Shown: piece by piece, positions 211-38,697 of the stretch | Layout of the letters: each line of letters opens with the position of its first letter | Numbering within the stretch: the first letter of the stretch is position 1 | Virus record (IMG/VR): IMGVR_UViG_3300045988_121486 | Location: 1-38,697 of that record | Direction: 5' to 3' (one strand) | From: a virus | Length of the DNA: 38,697 bases | The notes under the pieces: model-generated | Seen by the model: only the letters and a program-made list of their open reading frames with translations | Database searches by the model: none | Told to the model about the DNA's origin: nothing | Position numbers and translations under genes: made by a program

Positions 211-1461
211 TTATGTAGCAATTCGGTGTTCTTCAATAAATTTCATAAACTCTTTCTGACTTTTCTTGCCATCTTCTTTGCCAAAAAGGATAAGCCAGGC
301 TCTGTATTTTTCCCACGGCATATTTTCCGAGATAGGATTTGCAATATTATCAAAATATCCATCAATTTTATTATCAACCGCAGTACGGATTTCGGAGAAG
401 GTCTGGGTGTATACTTTTTTCATGATCTTGTCAGACTTCCAGCCTCCGCGCTCCTGAGCATACTTGTCCGGGATACGCAGAGCTGCCATAACGGATGCGT
501 TCAGGTGACGCAGATCATGAAAGGTCATATGCTTAAATCGGTGCTCGTCTTGGAACTTGATCCACTTGTGATAGATCTGGGCTTCGGTCAGGGTAACAAG
601 TCTGTCTCCTGGAACCTTATCAATCAGAGATTTGATATAGGGCGGAATCCTGTGAGTACGGTTACGGTATTTATTTTTTGCAATTTCTTTGCGGTGATCT
701 TTACCGCCCACAACAACCACAACCTCTGCAATGCGGATGTGATCCCCGGAGATTGATTTTGATTTTGTCAGTCCTCGGATCTCCGACATCGAGAAACTGA
801 GCCAGGCAGCCAGCAGGACCGCTAGCTCCAACTCGTTGCCTTTGATCGCTGGCAGAAGCGCCTCCGCCGGTATCAAATCCGGCACACGATCAGGGACTTC
901 GGGCAGTTCGATGTTGCGCAGGACATCATCCAGAGAGCTTGTATACTTACGGATTACGGATGCAATAAGGCTCCATTCGTTCTGAAGACGCTTTGGGGAA
1001 AGCGTCGCACCTTTTTTTCGGTTGCAAGGACGCTTGGATTCCATATTGACCGATTCCTGCAGGAGTTCCTTGTCCATATCTTTGACACAAATCTGCATCA
1101 GATCCTGAAAACCATTCCGCTGGATACACCTATAATCCTGGATAGTAGTAAGAGATCTGTTCAGGGCCAGCCGGGACTCAATGTATTTGTCAATCAACGC
1201 TGTGAGAGGGAGAAGAGTATAATCTACTTTCTTTTGCTTCGGCTGCTTTGCCAGTTCTTCTTCCTTCTGTAGAATAAATTGCGCTGCTGCAAGTTCTACC
1301 GCTTTTTTGGTGGGTCCGGTAATGGTTTTATATTTTCTTGTCGTCTTCTGTTCGCCATTCGGCAGCAGAACAGGAGTGCCGTCAGCATTATAGACCGGCT
1401 CTGAGTGACTGTATGGCTTAATACACCATGTTCCACTCGGCAGCTTATAGGGTGTTGCCAT
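211..1461 (-). CDS. int: Tyrosine site-specific integrase
   Basis: 416 aa. Box motifs SEIRGL, HDLRH, GGWKS and a downstream VYTQ tyrosine. SD GGAGGA lies upstream. Adjacent to the att core. Confidence 0.93.
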   Translation of the reverse strand: MATPYKLPSGTWCIKPYSHSEPVYNADGTPVLLPNGEQKTTRKYKTITGPTKKAVELAAAQFILQKEEELAKQPKQKKVDYTLLPLTALIDKYIESRLALNRSLTTIQDYRCIQRNGFQDLMQICVKDMDKELLQESVNMESKRPCNRKKGATLSPKRLQNEWSLIASVIRKYTSSLDDVLRNIELPEVPDRVPDLIPAEALLPAIKGNELELAVLLAAWLSFSMSEIRGLTKSKSISGDHIRIAEVVVVVGGKDHRKEIAKNKYRNRTHRIPPYIKSLIDKVPGDRLVTLTEAQIYHKWIKFQDEHRFKHMTFHDLRHLNASVMAALRIPDKYAQERGGWKSDKIMKKVYTQTFSEIRTAVDNKIDGYFDNIANPISENMPWEKYRAWLILFGKEDGKKSQKEFMKFIEEHRIAT

Positions 1462-8207: not shown

Positions 8208-10324
8208 AGTGGAGAGAGATACTGAAAGCACCGTTGATACCACGGACAAAAAGAAGGAAGAAAGAAAACCAGATCACTTTTCAGGCGACGGACCAGTACC
8301 TGATCATGGACATCTGGAAAAATAAAGTAAATATCTGCCGGCACGCCGTAGACCGGAAAACATGGGAATACGGCACCTATTACGTCGGAACAGGCAAAAA
8401 AGAGCAGACCAATCTGACAAGTTGCACGGAAGGATTTGGAGGATGCTACTGGGGATCGGAACCGTGTGAGGGAGATTGGCTGGAAGAAAAACATGCAAAA
8501 GAACTGGAGAAGTTTGTCCCGATGCATGATTACAGTTGGATCAGCGATCCCTTGCGGAGGATATGTCGGATGGAAAAAGACTACAGTGCGGATAAGAGGG
8601 AACGTGCCAGAGACCGGAAAGAACAGAGAATCAGAGATCTCATGAATAAGTGTCCGAAGCCGGGACGCAGGGTATATGACTGGATCACTGAGAGACTGGT
8701 AGGAGATCTCCAGTATGCCTTTTATAACAAGCAGGACAAGACCTGCCATTGTACCGCATGCAACGGGGATTTTAAAGAAGAGGCAGCAGGCGCCCAGGTA
8801 AAACATCGTAAACAGATCAAATGTCCTCTCTGTGGCCATGACCTGACGGTGGAAAAAACAAGGGGAAGAATCCAAACAATCGGATGGCTGACGATGATCC
8901 ACGACGTGGACGAGAAGCAGGGAGTAGAGAGACATTTTAGGGTAACGGTGGACTGGCACAGAACAGGAAAGAGAGATACAGAGCTGGATGAACAGATCCG
9001 CCTGATGATGCTCCGCGGAGCAAAGGATTTTATGAAAATCTATTACTACTGTGATGTGTACTGGTGCGGATGGCACGACCACAATCCGCAAAACAGACGC
9101 TGGCATACATCCTACCTGTATCCAGATACGGAAGGAATCAAAGCCGGATTGAAGGATACTGCATACGAAGCCTGGTCAGATGTCATGCCGATGCTGGCAC
9201 AGATGGGGATTAAGGCATTTTATAACGGATTGCTGGTGGAAAGCAATGAACAATTTACCGGTATCGCGGAGTATATGGCAAAGGGACGCTTTTACCGTCT
9301 GCTGGATGAACTGTCACAGTGTATTACATACTGGAATGGGTATTCGGGGAGAACAATTGAAGTAAACGGTAAGTGCATGGAAGATATCTTACTGATAGAT
9401 GACAAGCAGCTGATCAACCGCCTGCGGCAGGAAAACGGCGGAATGCAGATGCTGCGTTGGATGCAGTGGTCAGAACTGGAAGAAAGAAAACTGTCGGCAG
9501 AATTTATCGCATGGACAGAAAAAAACAGAATTGATCCGGAGGACTATGATAAATCTATCGCCGGAGAATACATGTCACCGGAACAGCTGATGAATTACCT
9601 GAACCGGCAGAAGAAGGAATCGTATCCGGGAATGAAGATCAAGGATGTATGGAATCAGTACGAGGATTATCTGTCCATGTCACGAACGCTGGGAAAACAC
9701 ATGGATGATGCACTGGTACACCGCCCCAGGGAATTGAAGCGCCGGCACGATGAAGTGAATGCGGAAGTGGAACTGCACAGGGAAGAATTTGAAAGAAAAA
9801 GAAATGCGGAAATGGCAAGGAAGCAGGCGGAGGAGATGAGGAACAAGTATCCGGGATATGAGGATATCCTCTCCGAGATCAGCGAGAAGTTTGAGTATCA
9901 GAATGACACCTATTGTATTGTGGTTCCCAGGGACTTTATGGAGATTACGGCAGAGGGCATGGCACTGCATCACTGCGTCGGTAACACGGAGAGATATTTT
10001 GACCGGATTGTCAGCAGAGAGACCTATATCTGCTTCCTGCGGCAGCAGTCGTCCCCGGATAAGCCTTTTTACACGATAGAGGTGGAGCCGGGCGGTACCA
10101 TCCGCCAGCACCGGGGAGCCTACGACGAGGAGCCGGGCATAGAAGAGATCAAGCCGTTCCTGAGGGAGTGGCAGAAGGTGATCCGCAAGCGCATGAGCAG
10201 GCAGGATCATGAATATGCCGCACAGAGTGAGATCCTGCGGCAGAAGAACATAGAAGAACTGAAGGCAAAGAATAATACTGTGGTCCTGAAAGGACTGGCA
10301 GAAGATCTGATGGAGGTAATCTGA
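8204..10324 (+). CDS. PcfJ-like domain protein
   Basis: C-terminal AEGMALHHCVGNTERYFDRIVSRETYICFLR...FYTIEVEPGGTIRQHRG matches my recollection of the PcfJ-like signature. Confidence 0.65.
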   Translation: MKWREILKAPLIPRTKRRKKENQITFQATDQYLIMDIWKNKVNICRHAVDRKTWEYGTYYVGTGKKEQTNLTSCTEGFGGCYWGSEPCEGDWLEEKHAKELEKFVPMHDYSWISDPLRRICRMEKDYSADKRERARDRKEQRIRDLMNKCPKPGRRVYDWITERLVGDLQYAFYNKQDKTCHCTACNGDFKEEAAGAQVKHRKQIKCPLCGHDLTVEKTRGRIQTIGWLTMIHDVDEKQGVERHFRVTVDWHRTGKRDTELDEQIRLMMLRGAKDFMKIYYYCDVYWCGWHDHNPQNRRWHTSYLYPDTEGIKAGLKDTAYEAWSDVMPMLAQMGIKAFYNGLLVESNEQFTGIAEYMAKGRFYRLLDELSQCITYWNGYSGRTIEVNGKCMEDILLIDDKQLINRLRQENGGMQMLRWMQWSELEERKLSAEFIAWTEKNRIDPEDYDKSIAGEYMSPEQLMNYLNRQKKESYPGMKIKDVWNQYEDYLSMSRTLGKHMDDALVHRPRELKRRHDEVNAEVELHREEFERKRNAEMARKQAEEMRNKYPGYEDILSEISEKFEYQNDTYCIVVPRDFMEITAEGMALHHCVGNTERYFDRIVSRETYICFLRQQSSPDKPFYTIEVEPGGTIRQHRGAYDEEPGIEEIKPFLREWQKVIRKRMSRQDHEYAAQSEILRQKNIEELKAKNNTVVLKGLAEDLMEVI

Positions 10325-12751: not shown

Positions 12752-12917
12752 GCTGCGAAAAGATGAAGATGATGTACAGCCGGGAGATGTCCTGATCTTA
12801 ATGGAGTGGGAAAACGGAGAATACACTGGCCGGACAGAAGTACGCAGGATCCGGTATGTGCTCCGGGATGTACCGGAATATGGACTGATGCAGGGTTACT
12901 GTATCATCGGATGGTAA
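12681..12917 (+). CDS. ASCH/DUF3850-like small protein
   Basis: KILPQYFQAVREEKKNFELRKDEDDVQPGDVLILMEW...YTGR pattern. Confidence 0.7.
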   Translation: MKTIEKKILPQYFQAVREEKKNFELRKDEDDVQPGDVLILMEWENGEYTGRTEVRRIRYVLRDVPEYGLMQGYCIIGW

Positions 12918-12931
12918 AGGAGGCAGCAGGG

Positions 12932-13435
12932 ATGGAATTACAGGAACTTACAAATAAAGTACTGAGATTATTTGATGCGAAGACAACCGAAGATCTGCCA
13001 GAGAAATTGCTGGCTGCAGTTCAAAATAATGATGAGACAGTGTATGAAAAATTTTGTGAGAATGTAAAAGATTTGAGCATCGACTGGTTACAAATGATTT
13101 TTCAGTATTACCATGCAGATAGAACGGAAAAAATGCAGGATTATACACCTAAGAGCTTAGCTGTGTTTATGGGAAAACTTGCAGGAAAATCAGATATAGT
13201 TACAGATATGTGCGCTGGATCAGGGGCATTGACAATTCAAAAATGGAATATGGACAAGAACCAAAAATTTGAATTATATGAATATGACAGCAAGGTAATG
13301 CCATTTCTACTGTTCAATATGGCAGTTAGAAATATTGAATGTAAAGTATATCATTCAGATGTATTGAAACAGGAAGTATTTCACACATACAAAATCGCAA
13401 GAGGAAAAAAATTCGGGAGATTTACGGAAATATGA
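12932..13435 (+). CDS. N6-adenine DNA methyltransferase, N-terminal part (AdoMet motif I only)
   Basis: DMCAGSGAL motif I and downstream YHSDVL, but no NPPY before the stop. Confidence 0.75.
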   Translation: MELQELTNKVLRLFDAKTTEDLPEKLLAAVQNNDETVYEKFCENVKDLSIDWLQMIFQYYHADRTEKMQDYTPKSLAVFMGKLAGKSDIVTDMCAGSGALTIQKWNMDKNQKFELYEYDSKVMPFLLFNMAVRNIECKVYHSDVLKQEVFHTYKIARGKKFGRFTEI

Positions 13436-14442
13436 AAATGAAGAAAACATTAATATCAAATCCACCGTATAACATGAAATGGGAAATACCGCCATTCGCA
13501 CAGATACAACCACGATTTTCTAAATGTTATGTAGTGCCACCTGCAAATAATGCGAATTATGCATTTGTACTAACAGGACTGGAAAAACATGACAGGTGTG
13601 TTTTCCTTCTGCCAGCCGCTATAATGAGCAGCAATCAAAAGGAGGAAAAGGCAATAAGAGAATGGTTAGTAGAGGAAAACCTGGTAGAAGCGGTGATTAT
13701 CTGCCCGGACAACATGTTTGAGTCCACTGGGGTGGGAACCTGTATTATTGTTTTGGACAAAAACAAAGAACATGTAACCACGGAAATGATAGACATTAGG
13801 AATAGATATGTAGAGGAAATCAGAGATCAAAAAGGGCAATATGGTGGAACCTCTCATACTAACAGAATCTATCAGAAAAAAATAAAGGTTATTCCGGAAA
13901 AAATAATGGAAGATGTGCTGGATGCAATCAGGGAAAGAAAAAGTATTCCTGATTTTTGCAAATCAGTAAGCATTGAAAAAATAAAAGAGGATAAATATTC
14001 TCTTTTGGCGAGTCACTATCTCGATATACAGGAAGAGGAAGTAAAGCATAGGAGCTATGAAGATATAGTAGAGGACCTAAACAGGGTGGTGAGAGAAAAA
14101 AACGCATGCAAGCTCACAATCAATGAAAGTCTGGCAAAAGGAATGGGATTCGATATCGAAATGTACAAAAATGATCAGCAAGATACAGGACTCAATGAAA
14201 TGCTTGTAAAATTGGGAGCACCACAGCTTGAAAAAGATAATTATTTTTCAACATCAAAGAATAAAAACGAAATCCGATTTGAGAACAACAGCAAAGATAT
14301 TCTGTCAAGCATCTTGGTGATGATTATGCAGACATGGAAACAGCACATATATTACCTGAATCAGCAAGAAAATAGATATTTGGCTGAATTGCGGGATGCA
14401 CTGATTCCGGATCTGATGAGTGGAAAAATTGATGTAACTTAG
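13432..14442 (+). CDS. N6-adenine DNA methyltransferase, C-terminal part (NPPY catalytic motif plus putative target-recognition region)
   Basis: Begins MKMKKTLISNPPYN. The frame is open from 13345 and is -1 relative to the upstream part. Confidence 0.75.
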   Translation: MKMKKTLISNPPYNMKWEIPPFAQIQPRFSKCYVVPPANNANYAFVLTGLEKHDRCVFLLPAAIMSSNQKEEKAIREWLVEENLVEAVIICPDNMFESTGVGTCIIVLDKNKEHVTTEMIDIRNRYVEEIRDQKGQYGGTSHTNRIYQKKIKVIPEKIMEDVLDAIRERKSIPDFCKSVSIEKIKEDKYSLLASHYLDIQEEEVKHRSYEDIVEDLNRVVREKNACKLTINESLAKGMGFDIEMYKNDQQDTGLNEMLVKLGAPQLEKDNYFSTSKNKNEIRFENNSKDILSSILVMIMQTWKQHIYYLNQQENRYLAELRDALIPDLMSGKIDVT

Positions 14443-14789: not shown

Positions 14790-15467
14790 ATGGATTTTGG
14801 ATATTACAACATGGATTGCATGGATGGGATGAAAGAGTTCCCGGATGGTTACTTTGACCTTGCGATTGTGGATCCACCGTATGGGATTGGAGAAAATGGG
14901 GATAAAAACCATACAAGAGGTAAACTGGCAAAAGCAAAGGATTACAAGAGTTTTAGCGGAATGGATATAAATCCACCAAACGAAAAATATTTCGATGAAC
15001 TGTTTAGAGTGTCAAAAAATCAGATTATTTTTGGGGCAAATCATTTTATAAGCAAAATGCCGTTTGATAGTAGTTGTTGGATTGTTTGGGATAAAGATAA
15101 TGGAAATACTGATTTTGCTGATTGTGAACTTGCATGGACTTCGTTCAGTACTGCAGTAAGGAGGATTAAATATAGGTGGAATGGAATGCTTCAGCAAAAT
15201 ATGAAACACAAAGAAAACCGTATTCATCCCACACAAAAACCTGTGGCACTATATGAATGGCTTCTGAACCGCTATGCAAAGCCCGGAGACATTATCCTAG
15301 ACACACATGTAGGCAGTGCCAGCAGCTTGATAGCCTGCTACAGAACCAACCATCCATATGTTGGCTTTGAACTGGACAAGCATTATTATGATTTGTCCAA
15401 AAAGAGATTAGATGCAGAAATGGCACAAATGCGATTATCTGATTTTATGCCGGGGGTGATGCCATGA
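14790..15467 (+). CDS. Beta-class DNA methyltransferase (N6-adenine/N4-cytosine family, DPPY)
   Basis: IVDPPYGIGE, then HPTQKP and LDTHVGSASS. This is the circularly permuted order typical of the N6_N4 methylase family. Confidence 0.88.
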   Translation: MDFGYYNMDCMDGMKEFPDGYFDLAIVDPPYGIGENGDKNHTRGKLAKAKDYKSFSGMDINPPNEKYFDELFRVSKNQIIFGANHFISKMPFDSSCWIVWDKDNGNTDFADCELAWTSFSTAVRRIKYRWNGMLQQNMKHKENRIHPTQKPVALYEWLLNRYAKPGDIILDTHVGSASSLIACYRTNHPYVGFELDKHYYDLSKKRLDAEMAQMRLSDFMPGVMP

Positions 15468-16756: not shown

Positions 16757-17758
16757 ATGACAAAGACAGACCTGATCAACGACATTGCATTTGAAATGAG
16801 TAACATTTTGACGCCGGAACAGATTGACAAGGTAAAGATAATATTTTTGGTAAAGATGCAGGACTTTGATCTTGCCGAGACCAGACAGCTTCCGATGGTG
16901 GAAGAACATGACAATGAATGGCTTATGAAGCGATACTGGATCGATGGGGCGGCAGTAGGCCTGAAGGAATCAACCATGCGGGGATATCTTGGAAGAATAA
17001 AAGAGTTCTTCGATTTCACGGGAAAAAATTATAAGTATATTACAGCACAGGACATAACAGATTTCCTTGCTATCAAAGCATACCGTGATCATATCAGCCA
17101 GAATTATAAGTCTACGCTATACCGGTACCTCTGCACATTTTTCGGCTGGGCTTTCCGGAAAAAGCATATCGTTGATAATATTGCAGATGGAGTGGACAAG
17201 GTAAAGCAGATTCAGGCACAAAAGAAGCGGTTGACAGATGAAGAGGTGGAAGATATCCGTGATGTATTGGATACACCAAAGGAAAAAGCACTGTTTGAAC
17301 TGATGCTTTGCACCGGCATGAGAGTAGGCGAAATATCCAATCTCAATATTTCGGATCTGGATCTGACGCACAGGACTGTCAACATCTGGGGAGAGAAGAG
17401 CAATAAATATCGCACCGGTATGTTGACACCTAAAGCAGTAAAAGCATTGCGGAATTATATCGGTGGGCGTCCTGGGACAGACCCTGTATTTTTGGCTGAC
17501 AGGGCGCCTCATAATCGTATGCGGGAGTACGGCATCGAGAAGCTGACCAAGGAAATGGCAGTCCGCGGTGGTGTGACGCGGTTGACGGCAACGGTCCATA
17601 TATACCGCAAGACCTTTGCGTCCGTCCTGTACCGTAAGACAGGGGATGTGATGCTGGTAAGTAAGCTCCTCGGACATTCCAACCCAGAGATTACAGTAAA
17701 ATATTATCTGGTAGATGATATCGAGGAGATGCAGAACAAATACAACAAAGTGGCATAA
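16757..17758 (+). CDS. Second tyrosine recombinase (XerC/D-like or Rci-like), internal to the prophage
   Basis: GMRVGEI (Arg I), HIYRKTFAS (HxxR), LLGHSN and VKYY (Tyr). 333 aa. Confidence 0.85.
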   Translation: MTKTDLINDIAFEMSNILTPEQIDKVKIIFLVKMQDFDLAETRQLPMVEEHDNEWLMKRYWIDGAAVGLKESTMRGYLGRIKEFFDFTGKNYKYITAQDITDFLAIKAYRDHISQNYKSTLYRYLCTFFGWAFRKKHIVDNIADGVDKVKQIQAQKKRLTDEEVEDIRDVLDTPKEKALFELMLCTGMRVGEISNLNISDLDLTHRTVNIWGEKSNKYRTGMLTPKAVKALRNYIGGRPGTDPVFLADRAPHNRMREYGIEKLTKEMAVRGGVTRLTATVHIYRKTFASVLYRKTGDVMLVSKLLGHSNPEITVKYYLVDDIEEMQNKYNKVA

Positions 17759-17772
17759 TTGCACCGGTGCAA
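17759..17772. repeat. Dispersed palindrome TTGCACCGGTGCAA, copy C (starts the base after the recombinase stop)
   Basis: Exact 14-mer, 30 nt upstream of the late-regulator start. Confidence 0.9.
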
Positions 17773-17802
17773 CTCCGGTGTGGCAGAAAGGAGAAAGCAT
17801 CG

Positions 17803-18231
17803 ATGCAGAGAATTAACAGAACGAGCTGGAGGATCATTGAAACTATATTATTACGTTATCCCCAGCGCAAGAAAGAATATGAGGAGTACATATCGGACAT
17901 TATGGCATCGCCAGCGGGAGGCAGCAGTCGTCCGTTGGACCCTGTCAGGGAAATGGACAAGGCACAATCTGTCACAGAAGCAAAGGCCCTGAAGATGACC
18001 TCGGTGTATCATGATAGGATCAAAAAAGAGATAGAGGCGGTGGAATTTGCCTATAATTCTCTCAAACCGGAGGAACAGAGAGTAATCCGGATCAGATACT
18101 GGAGCAAGGGCCTCAGAGCACCGATCCCGTACCTTAAGATTGGTGGGGCATCATACAGTGAGCGGCAGATGAAACGGATCGTGTTCAAGACAATCGAACA
18201 GATTGGTAGGTACATTGGAGAGTTAAAGTAA
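17803..18231 (+). CDS. Putative late-gene transcriptional activator (RinA/ArpU-like, sigma region-4-type)
   Basis: Lies immediately upstream of terS. RIIETILLRYPQRKKEYEEY...EQRVIRIRYW...SERQMKRIVFKTIEQIGRYIG. Confidence 0.55.
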   Translation: MQRINRTSWRIIETILLRYPQRKKEYEEYISDIMASPAGGSSRPLDPVREMDKAQSVTEAKALKMTSVYHDRIKKEIEAVEFAYNSLKPEEQRVIRIRYWSKGLRAPIPYLKIGGASYSERQMKRIVFKTIEQIGRYIGELK

Positions 18232-18322: not shown

Positions 18323-18329
18323 CGTGGAG

Positions 18330-18343
18330 TTGCACCGGTGCAA
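18330..18343. repeat. Dispersed palindrome TTGCACCGGTGCAA, copy D (between the terminator and terS)
   Basis: Exact 14-mer. A 16-bp palindrome when flanking G/C are included. Confidence 0.9.
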
Positions 18344-34217: not shown

Positions 34218-34907
34218 ATGGCAGCACCGGAGGGATACAAGACTCTCGGAAAAATCGGAATATCTTACAAAGGAGATTACAACTCTAATATTGCATATGA
34301 GCGTTTGGATGCGGTATATCACAATGGCAGTACATATTTGGCAATTAAAGATGCACCGGATGGAGCACCGAGGGATGATAAGCTCAACTGGATCTATTTG
34401 GCCAAGGGATTTAGTGGAGACATCGGATACTCAGAAATCGCGTTTACTGAGGCGGAGAACCGCGAGAACATTAATACGGGCGAGAGCGTAAAGACGGTCT
34501 TTGGCAAGATTAAAAAGTTTTTTGCAGACTTGACCGCACCGGCCTTTGCGCAGATGATCACATCCAAGGATGATCTGCTGGCCACCAAAGCCACCGGCTA
34601 TGTCCCGGATGCCAAGGCGGTGGCAGATGCGGTTACTGATGTAACTGGCAAGTTAGGTAAGTATAAATTATCTACGTGTGGATTCTTTTCCATTGATCTA
34701 GTTGTTGGATCAAATATAGTTTCAGTGGATAAGTTAGTGTCTGGTAGTTTGCCTCAAACACCATATACTCTATTCACCGTTATATCACAAGGAACGTCTT
34801 TAAATAGGTTAATAGATATATTTTTTGATGGTGGTAATAATGTAGTGGCATATACAAATGTAGCTCAAAGATATAGCATAATGTGGGTGTCTTTCGAATT
34901 GACTTAA
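34218..34907 (+). CDS. Tail fibre / receptor-binding protein: constant N-terminus (to GKL, 34655) plus currently attached C-terminal cassette A
   Basis: N-terminal YKGDYNSNIAYERLDAVYHNGSTYLAIKD fibre-like pattern. Composition becomes AT-rich exactly after 34655. Confidence 0.75.
   Translation: MAAPEGYKTLGKIGISYKGDYNSNIAYERLDAVYHNGSTYLAIKDAPDGAPRDDKLNWIYLAKGFSGDIGYSEIAFTEAENRENINTGESVKTVFGKIKKFFADLTAPAFAQMITSKDDLLATKATGYVPDAKAVADAVTDVTGKLGKYKLSTCGFFSIDLVVGSNIVSVDKLVSGSLPQTPYTLFTVISQGTSLNRLIDIFFDGGNNVVAYTNVAQRYSIMWVSFELT
34642..34655 (+). repeat. Crossover-like site S1, TAACTGGCAAGTTA (encodes TGKL)
   Basis: 14-mer identical to 37980-37993. The 10-nt core TGGCAAGTTA is shared with all four sites. 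Confidence 0.8.
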
Positions 34908-35593
34908 GTACTAAATAAAGCCTTGGTAAGTGTAATATAACCTCCAACATTGGTGCTATCAGTAGCTGAATATGAAAACAATTGTAATCGCAAATAATGG
35001 TTTCCACTTAAAGAACTACAATTATATGATGTGTTTATTGTGTATGTTGTTTTCTCCTTATCATAATTCGGATGAGCATATAAAGTAGTAACTTCAACTC
35101 CAGAAGCATTTAACAACTTAACTTTAGGTCGATAATCATCAGAACCATAAGGATTACCTGTTACTTTATAAGATGATCCCTGCAAAGTTAAAGTTTTAAA
35201 ACTAGATAAGTTGATTGCTGGAGAAGTATAATACACATAAGAACTCATTCCGGTTTGTGATGCGATTTTTAGTGTAACAGCACTACCATTAGAGGAAGCA
35301 CTTGGCGTAATAGCTCCTCCAGCAGTACCAACCGTCCACCCACTTCTTATCAAAGAATAAGTAGCAGGATTTTGTGATGCTACAACAGCTATTAATTGGT
35401 TAAATGTCATATTGGCGTTTACTAATCCGCTTGGTTTTAAAGCATTATATAGTGCAGCCGCATACGATGCCTCACTGCTAAAAGGGATAACTGTATCTGC
35501 ACCTGCCGGATTCGTAATAATGTAGCCATATTCTCCGTTAGAATTCACGCCGAATCTAAAAGGAACATTATCTGAGGCAATTAACTTGCCATT
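34904..35593 (-). CDS. Start-less alternative tail-fibre C-terminal cassette B (NGKL-IASDNVPFRFGVNSNGEYGY...)
   Basis: 229 codons open from the core. In-frame TGA at 35606-35608. No ATG or SD. The track's GTG at 35548 lies inside a continuous sequence. Shares TTAA stops with cassette A. Confidence 0.65.
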   Translation of the reverse strand, partial: NGKLIASDNVPFRFGVNSNGEYGYIITNPAGADTVIPFSSEASYAAALYNALKPSGLVNANMTFNQLIAVVASQNPATYSLIRSGWTVGTAGGAITPSASSNGSAVTLKIASQTGMSSYVYYTSPAINLSSFKTLTLQGSSYKVTGNPYGSDDYRPKVKLLNASGVEVTTLYAHPNYDKEKTTYTINTSYNCSSLSGNHYLRLQLFSYSATDSTNVGGYITLTKALFST

Positions 35594-35595
35594 TA
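35582..35595 (-). repeat. Crossover-like site S2, TAAATGGCAAGTTA (minus sense)
   Basis: Inverted relative to S1 and read as NGKL. Confidence 0.8.
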
Positions 35596-35649
35596 GTGTA
35601 GTAGATCAGACGGCGGGTGCAGCCGTAAGAGCACCAGAAAGGAGCCCTC

Positions 35650-36165
35650 ATGGGTTACATAAAGTTTAAAAATAAAAAGACCGTATCAAAGGTCATCGTA
35701 TCAGAGGAGAGCCCTCATGTGATCCGCATCACCGGAGACGGCCTCACAATAAATACTGACGGCTTCCGGCTCTATCTGGATGAGGGATGCAAATACCCGC
35801 TGGACAACGGCGAGTATGAGGCATACACTACTTTATTCCGGGAGGGCGACGGCTGGTATGAGTTGTCCGATGACGGATCCGTCTACACCGAGCCGATTGC
35901 ACCGGTGCAACCTGAGCCCACAGAAGAGGAGCTTACGGAGTTGGGCAGACAGCAGCAGATCAGTCAGCTGACTGCGCAGATCGATGACCTCAAGGCCAGA
36001 ATCGCCGCCAGTGACTATAAGGTTATCAAGACCTATGAGTATACTCTCCTCGGTGAGCAGACCGAGTATGATATGGAGGCTGTCCATGCAGAGAGACAGG
36101 CTCTCCGGGATCAGATCAATACATTGGAGACACAACTGGCAGATCTGACCGCAACCGCAGAGTAG
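35650..36165 (+). CDS. Hypothetical tail/lysis-junction protein with a coiled-coil C-terminus
   Basis: 171 aa with SD AAAGGAG. Contains palindrome copy F in its linker. Confidence 0.55.
   Translation: MGYIKFKNKKTVSKVIVSEESPHVIRITGDGLTINTDGFRLYLDEGCKYPLDNGEYEAYTTLFREGDGWYELSDDGSVYTEPIAPVQPEPTEEELTELGRQQQISQLTAQIDDLKARIAASDYKVIKTYEYTLLGEQTEYDMEAVHAERQALRDQINTLETQLADLTATAE
35897..35910. repeat. Dispersed palindrome TTGCACCGGTGCAA, copy F (inside coding sequence, encodes IAPVQP)
   Basis: Exact 14-mer. Confidence 0.9.
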
Positions 36166-36281
36166 GAGGCTGCTTATGAGAGTGAGAGACGGTCCTTAAA
36201 CAATAAAACATAGTAACCAAGAGCCAAGAGCCGATTACTTCCTTCAGGAGGTGACCGGCTCATTATATTAAGGAGACTGAG

Positions 36282-36527
36282 ATGGCAACAGAAATCATTG
36301 TGGCACTGATCGGCTGCGCGGGAAGTGCGGCAGGCGCCTTCTGCGGAATTCTGGTCAATACAAAATTGACTACATATCGGTTGGAGCAGCTCGAAAAAAA
36401 GGTGGATAAGCATAACACAGTCATAGAACGCACATTCAAGCTAGAAGAAGCGCAGGCAGTTATGCAGGAACAAATTAAAGTAGCAAATCACAGAATTGAA
36501 GATTTGGAAAGAGAGGTAAAAGAATGA
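36282..36527 (+). CDS. Small membrane and coiled-coil protein (lysis accessory, XhlA-like?)
   Basis: N-terminal TM segment followed by a coiled coil. Precedes the holin. Confidence 0.45.
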   Translation: MATEIIVALIGCAGSAAGAFCGILVNTKLTTYRLEQLEKKVDKHNTVIERTFKLEEAQAVMQEQIKVANHRIEDLEREVKE

Positions 36528-36862
36528 GCACAAGTACAATCATGGTAATTATTTTGGCAGTGCTGACGGCACTGGTAGTAGGAACATTTTTATGGGTATA
36601 CATCCGCGATAAGACGATTGATGAGATCAGAGTGGATGTGTATCACCTGTTTCTGAAGGCAGAACATGCATTTAAAGAGTCGGGTTCCGGAAAGCAGAAG
36701 ATGAAGTATGTAGTAAGTCAGGCAAGAAAACTGTTGCCTTCATGGCTGCAGTATTTTGTCACTGATGAGTTCTTAGAAAGCGTTATAGAAAAGTGGTTCC
36801 AGGCAGTGAAGGATCTGCTGGATGACGGCAAGCTGAATGGATCAGAGGAGGAAGAAGAATGA
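36524..36862 (+). CDS. Holin (LL-H-like)
   Basis: N-terminal TM IMVIILAVLTALVVGTFLWVYI, then a GSGKQKMKYV pattern. Directly upstream of the endolysin. Confidence 0.65.
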   Translation: MSTSTIMVIILAVLTALVVGTFLWVYIRDKTIDEIRVDVYHLFLKAEHAFKESGSGKQKMKYVVSQARKLLPSWLQYFVTDEFLESVIEKWFQAVKDLLDDGKLNGSEEEEE

Positions 36863-37869
36863 AAAAGGCATTATCAAAAGGACCGGATATTTCCAAACAC
36901 AATGGAAATGTTAATATCAAAAAAGTGCGTGATGCCGGATATAAGCCTATAGGTATTCGGGCTGGTTACGGAAAAAATAACGTCGACGAGAAGTATGTGA
37001 GCAATGCATTGGCCTGCTTTAATCTGGCTGTGCAGGTGCTGCTCTACTGGTTTTCATATGCCTACACCGCAGCAATGGCAGTGGCAGAGGCAGAGTTTTG
37101 TATCACTCAGGCTAAAAAGTACTGGAGCAAATGCCCTATTGCATTTGATTTTGAGTACGACTCTGTAAATTATGCGCGTAAGAGAGGCGTGAATGTCACA
37201 AAACAGCTGGCTACAGATATGGCAATTGCATTTTTGCAAAAGGTCAAAGCAGCCGGTTATCTCCCGGTGATCTATACCAACAAAGATTACCTTAATAAAT
37301 ATTTTGACATGAACCGGATCGTAAAAGCACTGGGAAAGGTATACGTATGGTATGCACGCTATACGTCCAGTCTGTCAGCGGCGGAGATTGACCTTGCGGA
37401 TATTTGGCAGTATACATCATCAGGATCTGTCCCTGGAATAAGTGGCAAGTGTGATATCAATATCTTTTATACGGACTTTGAAATGGTATCAGTACCGGCG
37501 CAAAGAGAAGAAACCTGTAATATTAATATTCAGAACTTCCAGAAAGCTGCAAATGCAGACGGTTATCGGGATGAGCAGGGAAGAAAGCTGGCTGAAGATG
37601 GCAAAGATGGCAAGAATACTCGGTATGTAAAACAGCAGATCTGCCTGCAGGCGAAGAGATTCGGGCTGAGCTACAAGGTTGGCTCCAGGGGAGCGGTAGT
37701 TAAGTGGTGGCAGACACGTTGCAATGAGATCTTAGGACATGACCAGAACGTAGATGGTAAGTATGGAAAAGACGCAAGGAAAGAGACCATTGCAGTGCAG
37801 GACAAGCTGAACCTGGTAAAAGATGGAAAAGTAGGATACGACAGTATCCAGGCGGCATTCTATAATTGA
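36859..37869 (+). CDS. Endolysin: GH25 muramidase plus C-terminal peptidoglycan-binding repeat
   Basis: GPDISKHNGNVN...GIRAGYG...FDFEYD...WQYTSSGSVPGISGKCDINIFY. C-terminal VDGKYGKDARKETIAVQ. Confidence 0.9.
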   Translation: MKKALSKGPDISKHNGNVNIKKVRDAGYKPIGIRAGYGKNNVDEKYVSNALACFNLAVQVLLYWFSYAYTAAMAVAEAEFCITQAKKYWSKCPIAFDFEYDSVNYARKRGVNVTKQLATDMAIAFLQKVKAAGYLPVIYTNKDYLNKYFDMNRIVKALGKVYVWYARYTSSLSAAEIDLADIWQYTSSGSVPGISGKCDINIFYTDFEMVSVPAQREETCNINIQNFQKAANADGYRDEQGRKLAEDGKDGKNTRYVKQQICLQAKRFGLSYKVGSRGAVVKWWQTRCNEILGHDQNVDGKYGKDARKETIAVQDKLNLVKDGKVGYDSIQAAFYN

Positions 37870-37937
37870 CGGATCAGCAGAAGGTATGATACTCTAAAAT
37901 TACCCATTGAATCCTTCTCATGGTTTATCATGGGAAA

Positions 37938-37976
37938 AGAGTGGCGAACAAGAAGGGGTGTTCGCCACTCTTTTTA
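37938..37976 (+). terminator. Strong intrinsic terminator after the endolysin
   Basis: Perfect 13-bp stem AGAGTGGCGAACA/TGTTCGCCACTCT followed by a T-run. Confidence 0.85.
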
Positions 37977-37979
37977 TAT

Positions 37980-37993
37980 TAACTGGCAAGTTA
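37980..37993 (+). repeat. Crossover-like site S3, TAACTGGCAAGTTA
   Basis: Identical to S1. Starts 4 nt after the terminator T-run. Confidence 0.8.
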
Positions 37994-38317
37994 GAGACTA
38001 AAGAAGAATTTGTCAATGAAGGCACTATTGTTTCTAAAACCGGTAACCATGTGACATTGAATGGATCACAATATATTCAGAGTGTTACATACACGATCCC
38101 AGGTTGGGGAACTTTAAAAATAGGTACAATGTCCAAGCAATATGTTCCATCAAGAGCATTGGTTTTTTACACTCAGGTTAGGAATTCTGATACATCGAGA
38201 ATCTATTACATCGGCATTATTATAAGTATCAATGGAGATATTTCATTATATAATGCTGCGTCTGATGTGGAAATCACATTCTCGCAGATTGGTTTTTCAT
38301 TTGGCTGGGACGTGTAA
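37982..38317 (+). CDS. Start-less silent tail-fibre C-terminal cassette C (TGKL-ETKEEFVNEG...GWDV)
   Basis: In frame with GKL. The only upstream start candidate (TTG 37907) has no SD and would be translated through the terminator hairpin. Confidence 0.6.
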   Translation, partial: TGKLETKEEFVNEGTIVSKTGNHVTLNGSQYIQSVTYTIPGWGTLKIGTMSKQYVPSRALVFYTQVRNSDTSRIYYIGIIISINGDISLYNAASDVEITFSQIGFSFGWDV

Positions 38318-38320
38318 ATT

Positions 38321-38581
38321 TTAATTTTTACGGCAAATAAATTCTATAGTAGCCTGTTCGGTGACTGCACGTGAGGATATTGTAATAACTCCAACATAGT
38401 TGCTGTTATTGTCATAATTACAAAATATTAGATCCGCATGTGGGAAATTAGTGTATCCGTTTACTGCAATTACAGTGTATCCATCAGGTATTTCTGGTGC
38501 ATTAAAATATCCAATTTTTAGGGTTGTATCAAAATCAACAGTTGGATCAATTTTAATAATTTTTAATTCTAACTTGCCATT
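38321..38581 (-). CDS. Start-less silent tail-fibre C-terminal cassette D (NGKL-ELKIIKIDPTVDF...CRKN)
   Basis: 86 codons open from the core. In-frame TAA 5 codons upstream. No ATG. Not in the ORF track for that reason. Confidence 0.6.
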   Translation of the reverse strand, partial: NGKLELKIIKIDPTVDFDTTLKIGYFNAPEIPDGYTVIAVNGYTNFPHADLIFCNYDNNSNYVGVITISSRAVTEQATIEFICRKN

Positions 38582-38583
38582 TA
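38570..38583 (-). repeat. Crossover-like site S4, TAAATGGCAAGTTA (minus sense)
   Basis: 14-mer identical to S2 and inverted relative to S1 and S3. Confidence 0.8.
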
Positions 38584-38614
38584 CAGAGAAAATAAATTAC
38601 AGGAAACAACTTGA

Positions 38615-38635
38615 TGCAACACAAAATGCAACATG
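38615..38635 (+). repeat. Two more TGCAAC(A)(C/T)(A/G) arm-type motifs at 12-bp spacing beside the right att copy
   Basis: TGCAACACA at 38615 and TGCAACATG at 38627, in the same orientation as the left array. Confidence 0.55.
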
Positions 38636-38668
38636 AAATAGAAAAACCCTTGAAAAATCAAGGGTTTT
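38636..38668 (-). terminator. Phage-borne intrinsic terminator for the reconstituted tRNA gene
   Basis: Minus sense: AAAACCCTT/AAGGGTTTT stem followed by TCTATTT, starting 4 nt after the tRNA 3' end. Confidence 0.65.
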
Positions 38669-38671
38669 AAG

Positions 38672-38697
38672 AAGCGCGAGACGGGGATCGAACCCGC
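38672..38697 (-). tRNA. 3' end of a tRNA gene (T-arm plus acceptor strand) continuing beyond the window; right att core
   Basis: Minus sense GCGGG-TTCGATC-CCCGT-CTCGCGC-T. The anticodon is outside the window, so the identity is unknown. Confidence 0.7.

Follow-up and report, generated by a model that had tools for sequence, protein, structure and literature searches.

A probable four-site tail-fibre shufflon enclosing the lysis genes in a Lachnospiraceae prophage family

The 38,697 nucleotides of IMG/VR virus record IMGVR_UViG_3300045988_121486, referred to below as the window (the whole stretch of DNA analysed, at its full length), make up a complete prophage that runs exactly from attL to attR and is embedded in a 124-kb metagenome scaffold. 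Its right end holds a tail-fibre gene, four short repeats and three silent fibre tips placed on both sides of the lysis genes, an arrangement that is probably a shufflon, in which inversions between the repeats would exchange the tip of the fibre. The last structural gene, at 34218–34907 (229 aa), follows those for the tape measure, the DUF6711 protein, a 594-aa tail protein and a 233-aa protein, and its product gives weak PHROG tail-fibre matches. This gene and the features that follow it are these:

34218–34655, plus strand: constant part of the tail fibre (receptor-binding protein), with its own ATG, ending ...VTDVTGKL; the only expression site
34642–34655, plus strand: core site S1, TAACTGGCAAGTTA; similarity to relatives stops exactly here
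34656–34907, plus strand: cassette A, the tip expressed now, 83 aa after GKL plus the stop codon
34904–35581, minus strand: cassette B, silent tip, 225 aa after GKL, converging on A
35582–35595, minus strand: core site S2, TAAATGGCAAGTTA; every relative regains similarity to the window at exactly 35582
35596–37979, plus strand: proposed middle invertible segment of 2.4 kb (gpX–holin–endolysin block)
35650–36165, plus strand: gpX, in the middle segment
36282–36527, plus strand: XhlA-like gene (Pfam match), in the middle segment
36524–36862, plus strand: holin gene (Pfam match), in the middle segment
36859–37869, plus strand: GH25 endolysin gene (Pfam match), in the middle segment
37935–37974: terminator, a hairpin with a 16-bp stem that stands between an A-run and a T-run
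37980–37993, plus strand: core site S3, TAACTGGCAAGTTA, identical to S1; the terminator-plus-S3 unit is identical in the related contigs L075, L079 and L083
37994–38317, plus strand: cassette C, silent tip, 107 aa after GKL plus the stop codon (TGKL-ETKEEF...GWDV)
38321–38569, minus strand: cassette D, silent tip, 82 aa after GKL (NGKL-ELKIIK...CRKN)
38570–38583, minus strand: core site S4, TAAATGGCAAGTTA, identical to S2; right boundary of the S3-to-S4 module

Exactly four copies of the 14-mer TAAMTGGCAAGTTA are present in the window, and no further copy with at most one mismatch is found in its 38,697 bases; the relaxed pattern TAAMTNNNNAKTTA has six matches in the window against 0.16 expected from shuffles. 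The same short repeat stands at every junction between constant and variable sequence, oriented with its cassette, and each core reads xx(T/N)-G-K-L and runs into an in-frame, start-less open frame. The orientations of the sites alternate +, −, +, −, so that any plus site would be able to invert with any minus site. S3 begins 4 nt past the T-run of the terminator, whose letters make it look able to act both ways, and the same terminator stem is present in the related contig L084.

The frame of cassette C ends in a stop codon at 38315–38317, and that of cassette D extends from 38581 down to 38321, with a TAA five codons upstream of its N. In-frame stops or the terminator lie directly upstream of the silent cassettes B, C and D, which are without a usable start codon: no start giving at least 40 aa exists for D, and the sole start for C is a TTG at 37907, upstream of the terminator. 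The initial annotation, made from the sequence alone, had already described C (to 38317) and D (38581 to 38321) as open frames without a start codon, one opening at a 14-mer at 37980–37993 identical to S1 and 4 nt past the T-run, the other at an inverted copy at 38570–38583 identical to S2, with GGC-AAG-TTA kept in the cassette frame at all four cores; these coordinates and sequence details are all correct. The G+C content of all four cassettes is 29–37%, compared with about 39–57% in the neighbouring tail and lysis genes. A promoter and terminator scan of 33–38.7 kb gave counts not above those of shuffled sequence, and it offers no evidence on a separate lysis promoter.

About 90 related loci were retrieved from IMG/VR, ENA, Logan and GTDB, the named hosts of which are Waltera and other Lachnospiraceae. 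Homologues of the fibre number 1,724 in the protein collection, and many of them are 95–100% identical over the constant 64% and unrelated further on. The core consensus, built from 219 sites, is TAAaTGGCAAgTTA(a), with weak conservation outside it. When the 208 sites having a closed downstream frame were translated, an open reading frame (ORF) of at least 60 codons (median 98) was found in the GGC-AAG-TTA frame at 98% of them and in the other two frames at 0%. Among the 204 cassettes there are 54 families, shared by slot 1, which is expressed, and slots 2, 3 and 4; the largest has 16, 13, 2 and 6 members in these slots, respectively. No fewer than 22 related loci have all four sites, and some ten others end shortly past the third, compared with 12 loci that have the proximal pair alone despite at least 3.5 kb of sequence after S2. 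The distal pair therefore belongs to the usual architecture, and the word "orphan", which the initial annotation had applied to the C/D pair, is misleading. A cassette made up of two genes lies at 1417–2140 of L083: the tip encoded after the core is only 21 codons long, and a second ORF of 213 aa, which begins with an ATG of its own, comes next. A similar pairing of tail-fibre genes, S and U, is known from the invertible G segment of phage Mu.

Tips that are silent in the window are joined to constant regions in other phages. Protein P0021, on contig L001, combines a constant region of 99.4% nucleotide identity with C at 100%, the switch from one to the other lying inside the core. Given that L001 has a coverage of 1.5x and that its 1312–1414 end is Illumina adapter, independent cases of the junction between constant region and C were sought. 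The same junction is present in L038, and P0183, in the protein collection, is the exact constant region of the window fused to C; the representative of its 90% cluster is WP_418630705.1 of Waltera sp., which occurs on 132 contigs, the number given also for P0184, likewise named as from Waltera sp. Cassette D is found at 100% identity in P0121 (contig L204), fused to a constant region about 90% identical to that of the window, and L088 carries cassette B, at 98% identity, joined to a constant region. Fusions to both C and D, which the initial annotation had suggested looking for in relatives, are thus on record. They also bear on whether C and D could be decayed remnants of an old tail-fibre module, with the cores left over from a duplication. 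Such decay might be read from the lack of a start codon, a ribosome-binding site and a promoter in C and D, and from the fact that no isomer of this clone was seen. However, both frames are intact from core to stop, in 98% of the family's cassettes the correct frame, and no other, is open, tips expressed elsewhere have the same sequence as C and D, and the cores are perfectly conserved, with central bases that change in concert, all of which makes decay hardly credible.

Rearranged versions of the locus, including the lysis block, are found among the relatives. L076 matches L075 at 98.9% identity up to S2 and then continues as the reverse complement of L075, from S3 toward S2, at 99.94%; in its hybrid site the terminator flank of S3 and a C at position 4 are joined to position 14 of S2 and its cassette. 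L076 is the product of S2×S3, in which the lysis block has been flipped. L083 reads const-S1-P4> <P3-S3(−)-terminator-lysin(−)-holin(−)-xhlA(−)-gpX(−)-S2(+)-P2>, which is exactly the arrangement predicted for S1×S4; L079 shares its constant region and lysis block at 99.9% identity and has different cassettes. In both comparisons of an isomer with its unflipped relative (L076/L075 and L083/L079), the shared stretches are 98.9–99.9% identical and the breakpoints are inside the core. A reversed tail gene after S2 is present in L062 as well. The fold-back contig L045 (10604–12249) was considered as an isomer and rejected, being read as a chimera of two phages that share a cassette.

Repeats could in principle have misled the assemblers and produced the apparent isomers as artefacts, a reading to which the low coverage and adapter end of L001 and the chimera-like L045 lend some colour. 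It is nevertheless very improbable: a 14-bp repeat is below the k-mers typical of assemblers, the same types of junction occur in independent samples and collections (ENA, Logan, IMG/VR and NCBI), P0184 being on 132 contigs, and the breakpoints agree to the base and are reciprocal. Caution is still needed with short-read contigs of the locus, such as L001 and L045. In addition, nine contigs stop 46–162 nt past the start of S1 and others stop soon after S3; coexisting arrangements would break assembly graphs just past these two sites.

The initial annotation had proposed that the phage carries four tips and one expression site, that the inversions involved would also flip the 35650 gene and the holin–endolysin block, and, as the finding that would tell against it, that C and D might prove decayed in homologous phages, with a single isomer ever observed. 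The first proposal is supported by the open frames of C and D from the core, by their fusion to constant regions elsewhere and by the sharing of families across slots 1–4, and the second by L083 (S1×S4) and L076 (S2×S3); with regard to the third, the frames are intact and isomers are found in relatives.

Whole cassette pairs also change places between genomes. The S3-to-S4 module (37980–38583) is found in the proximal slot of L204, L378, L380 and L382 at 99–100% identity, with flanks that are 74–95% identical and boundaries exactly at the cores; in the last three contigs, the module is 99.8–100% identical and the flanks are 91–95% and 76–84%. The A/B module (34639–35595) is distal in L072, beside the same attR, at 99.8% identity, and cassette A is in the distal slot in L072, L075 and L077. 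L380 and L382 (13470–14060) have the same insertion site and the same proximal module of constant region and C/D, and carry different distal cassette pairs. L378, with C/D proximal and a different lysis module, is the source of the exact protein of constant region plus C. The junctions of constant region and C in L001, L038 and L378 fit a deletion, a series of inversions or a proximal C/D pair.

A rival account treats C and D as a passive reserve, with a distal pair that would never invert and tips that would arrive by exchange between phages, homologous or at the cores, during co-infection or between co-resident prophages. It accords with the near-identical module between diverged flanks in L378, L380 and L382, whose edges are at the cores, with L380 and L382 as one prophage bearing different distal pairs, and with the origin of the exact constant-plus-C protein in such a mosaic phage. 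Nonetheless, we regard it as unlikely. What L076 and L083 show is not swapped cassettes but inversions with the lysis block inside them, and 14 bases are too few for efficient homologous recombination, whereas swapping at the cores would call for the same recombinase and leave inversion within a genome possible.

We favour a four-site, three-segment shufflon for the tail fibre, in which the gpX–holin–endolysin block is the middle segment, and put its probability at roughly 0.8. A recombinase would pair two inverted cores and exchange strands in the central core, acting on two convergent cassette pairs, A/B by the promoter-proximal constant region and C/D past the lysis genes. Inversion by S1×S2 would lead to expression of B, S1×S4 to expression of D together with a flipped lysis block, and S3×S4 followed by S1×S4 to expression of C, while S2×S3 would flip the lysis block alone, so that its orientation could be restored. 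By the logic of the sites, S1×S4 followed by the inner S2×S3 would swap the cassette pairs and restore the orientation of the lysis genes, and thus lysis need not stay inverted. Inversion is presumably active in this clone, and the same cores would let whole cassette pairs move between slots and between related phages.

The variable positions of the core indicate where the strands may cross. Position 4 (A or C) goes with the slot, C being present in 18 of 78 slot-1 sites and 14 of 32 slot-3 sites and nearly absent from slots 2 and 4, a pattern that holds whatever the cassette; position 11 (G or T) goes with the cassette family. The L075/L076 pair confines the crossover to the interval from position 5 to position 13. 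All cassette-bearing sites of a locus agree in their central four bases: GGCA in most lineages, GATA at four sites of L035 (7425, 8104, 10382 and 10935), AGCA at three sites of L040 and AGGA at four sites of L084, the concerted changes covering three central positions, 6 to 8. In site-specific exchange, recombination partners must match in the overlap region, so that its bases have to change together, as they do here. The exchange would accordingly take place at about positions 5–10 (TGGCAA), and lineages with different central bases may be mutually incompatible recombination groups. A search of IMG/VR for GATA-type S1 sites returned essentially random matches apart from the contig of L035 itself.

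The enzyme that would carry out these inversions is less certain than the inversions, and one gene of the prophage is the leading candidate:

16757–17758, plus strand: candidate recombinase of the shufflon (333 aa), of the armless XerA/XerD-like tyrosine type

Its product matches PF00589 at 4e-30, with a XerA-like match below the curated cutoff, and its best solved-structure matches are XerA and XerD, over residues 68/71 to 316–321. No further domain follows the catalytic one. The protein is distinct from the 416-aa integrase (Int), the only other recombinase in the prophage, and its gene lies directly upstream of the regulator and small terminase genes. No recombinase was found between 33.5 kb and attR, so that this candidate, 17 kb upstream of the sites, is the nearest. 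On 40 of 46 long related contigs the slot holds this type or a second Xer-like type, which is 27% identical to it over the full length. The genes flanking the slot, which is at 9383–10465 on L350, are 86–98% identical. Both types co-occur with the identical core. That the gene at 16757–17758 encodes the shufflon recombinase is the best single assignment available, although we would give it only even chances.

Other candidates were tried and set aside. A matched change of core and recombinase seemed to exist in L035, which has a GATA core and, in the same slot, a recombinase 27–32% identical, and this idea was abandoned because type 2 is present on at least 12 GGCA contigs. Int was rejected as the invertase since the att core is unrelated to the shufflon core and since, among relatives that share the latter, the sequence past S4 is of three or more unrelated kinds. 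For a serine invertase, no resolvase-domain match was obtained in the 30 ORFs (most of the long ones) that were scanned against Pfam, and tblastn of the whole window with an approximate Gin-like query gave only E values above 7. Recombinase-like genes are also present near the right end of distant relatives (L266–L277), and no shufflon lies beside them at the two checked, L268 and L269.

The main alternative to the 16757–17758 gene is a recombinase supplied in trans, in which case the system would be real but served by the host or another element, by neither the Xer-like enzyme of the phage nor Int. No recombinase gene adjoins the sites, two types only 27% identical accompany the same core, and 6 of the 46 long contigs showed neither type; moreover, a bifidophage inversion locus without an adjacent recombinase has been proposed to use an invertase in trans (PMC6109161). 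On the other hand, 40 of the 46 have an armless Xer-like recombinase in the same slot, as reported for the Rin system described below, and a phage depending on its host in this way would stop switching on a change of host. Supply in trans is thus possible, albeit less probable than the phage's own enzyme.

Directly beside the candidate gene, a perfect 18-nt inverted repeat (TTGCACCGGTGCAACTCC and GGAGTTGCACCGGTGCAA, the core of which is a 14-nt palindrome) is present at 17759–17776 and 18326–18343. It brackets a 154-aa regulator ORF (17767–18231) between the recombinase and the small terminase, and it could be an invertible switch or an operator pair. No flipped version of this ORF between the 18-nt repeats was found in about 50 related loci.

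It should be noted that a number of observations weigh against the shufflon as set out here. No isomer of this exact prophage clone was seen, and the isomer evidence comes entirely from comparisons between different samples, so that the inversions may be ancient rather than ongoing. The exact constant-plus-C protein, from L378, is not an inversion isomer of the window, and exact chimeras of the constant region with B and with D are absent from the protein collection. As for the enzyme, the candidate lies 17 kb from its supposed sites, the existence of two types so different in sequence, both with the identical core, weakens the assignment, and the 18-nt inverted repeat could be the real target of the 16757–17758 recombinase. 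Finally, that the tips bind receptors and set the host range is suggested only by their position and variability.

Among known systems, the proposed shufflon most closely resembles the Rin shufflon of Bifidobacterium breve and B. longum prophages (Mavrich et al. 2018, PMC6109161). Both are found in temperate, siphophage-like gut prophages and combine a receptor-binding-protein gene with a constant N-terminal part and a set of C-terminal cassettes that have no start codon. In front of every cassette stands a short asymmetric repeat, of 11 bp and called rix in one case and of 14 bp in the other. In both, the isomers differ by inversions at the repeats, and an armless XerD-like tyrosine recombinase is predicted for Rin and is a candidate here. 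The rix repeat, TTCCCTAACCC, is however unrelated to the core TAAMTGGCAAGTTA, the rin gene is directly beside the cassettes whereas the candidate here is 17 kb off, and the hosts are Actinobacteria in one case and Lachnospiraceae in the other. In addition, the Rin cassettes form one contiguous block, whereas here two pairs are split by the lysis module, which would consequently invert too.

The tail-fibre inversion systems Min (p15B), Gin (Mu), Cin (P1) and Pin (e14) likewise join a constant 5′ part of a tail-fibre gene to alternative 3′ parts by inversion, and Min, with several crossover sites, gives rise to many isomers. The enzymes of these systems are Hin-family serine invertases encoded beside the segment, which act on 26-bp sites with a 2-bp crossover and depend on a Fis-bound enhancer. 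In contrast, no serine recombinase was found here by the Pfam scan of 30 ORFs or by tblastn, and only 14 bp are conserved. To our knowledge, the invertible DNA of Gin, Cin, Pin and Min contains tail-fibre and assembly genes only and never lysis genes.

The shufflon of R64 and other IncI plasmids (Rci, sfx and pilV) also switches C-terminal adhesin tips through multiple inversions. Its sfx sites are asymmetric, with a conserved core and one conserved arm, an asymmetry believed to hold Rci to inversion and to keep direct repeats from recombining into a deletion; here too, just 14 bp are conserved and the flanks vary. A comparable asymmetry of the sites would account for the persistence of the lysis genes between S1 and S3, which are direct repeats. 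The two systems differ in several respects: the R64 product is an adhesin of the conjugative pilus and not a phage fibre, rci is adjacent and Rci has an extra C-terminal domain, whereas the candidate here is unlinked and ends with the catalytic domain, the sites differ in sequence and length, and the R64 shufflon has no essential unrelated genes inside it. The system is distinct from all those compared in its split array, in an essential lysis module as an invertible segment, in its unlinked candidate recombinase and in its new core. Searches of the literature on programmed inversions, structural variants of gut phages and viral invertons turned up neither this family nor a shufflon that contains lysis genes.

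If this reading holds, a very common prophage family of human-gut Lachnospiraceae diversifies its host recognition in this way; its fibre has over 1,700 variants, and its tips form no fewer than 54 families in the loci examined. The segments of a shufflon would not be confined to tips either, given that an essential 2.4-kb lysis module is inside the invertible DNA and that isomers with inverted lysis genes occur in nature, which raises the question of whether tip switching affects lysis. One far-reaching answer is that the lysis genes are built into the shufflon, tip switching being coupled to the orientation of holin and endolysin as a heritable OFF/ON phase switch of lysis, with the cores serving as docking sites for the exchange of tip pairs between co-resident phages and the central-base lineages as orthogonal groups. 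Half of the isomers would then have their lysis genes against late transcription, insulated by the terminator beside S3. This extension of the shufflon is doubtful. The 14-bp core with its concertedly variable four-base centre is also a compact candidate site for synthetic shufflons, and the repertoire of tips matters for the prediction of host range as well as for assembly, with contigs breaking at the cores.

Searches for the identity of the tips gave no cassette matches in PDB (alignment of the fibre, and cassette B), Pfam (constant part plus A, and cassette B) or PHROGs (all four tips), and the AlphaFold2 model of the fibre is poor (pLDDT 51).

The frame of the prophage adds further features, listed for context:

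1–26 and 38672–38697: attL core and attR core, the two copies of a 26-nt direct repeat, AAGCGCGAGACGGGGATCGAACCCGC
211–1461, minus strand: tyrosine integrase Int (416 aa), adjoining attL

The att repeat is the 3′ end of a tRNA gene, and the relative L002 has a tRNA-Gly gene at the matching place past S4; the att core has no relation in sequence to the shufflon core. Because the window extends from attL to attR, the C/D module adjoins attP and int in the excised circle, as the initial annotation had correctly stated. Tandem ATGCAACATGAA repeats are present at 160–205, by attL and int, with two related copies at 38614–38640, by attR; they are probably arm-type binding sites of the integrase. Elsewhere in the prophage, the ORFs at 12806–13435 and 13432–14442 match positions 13–121 and 127–309 of one N6 DNA methylase profile of 311 positions, and the methylase gene at 12806–14442 appears split or frameshifted; a third methylase is encoded at 14790–15467.

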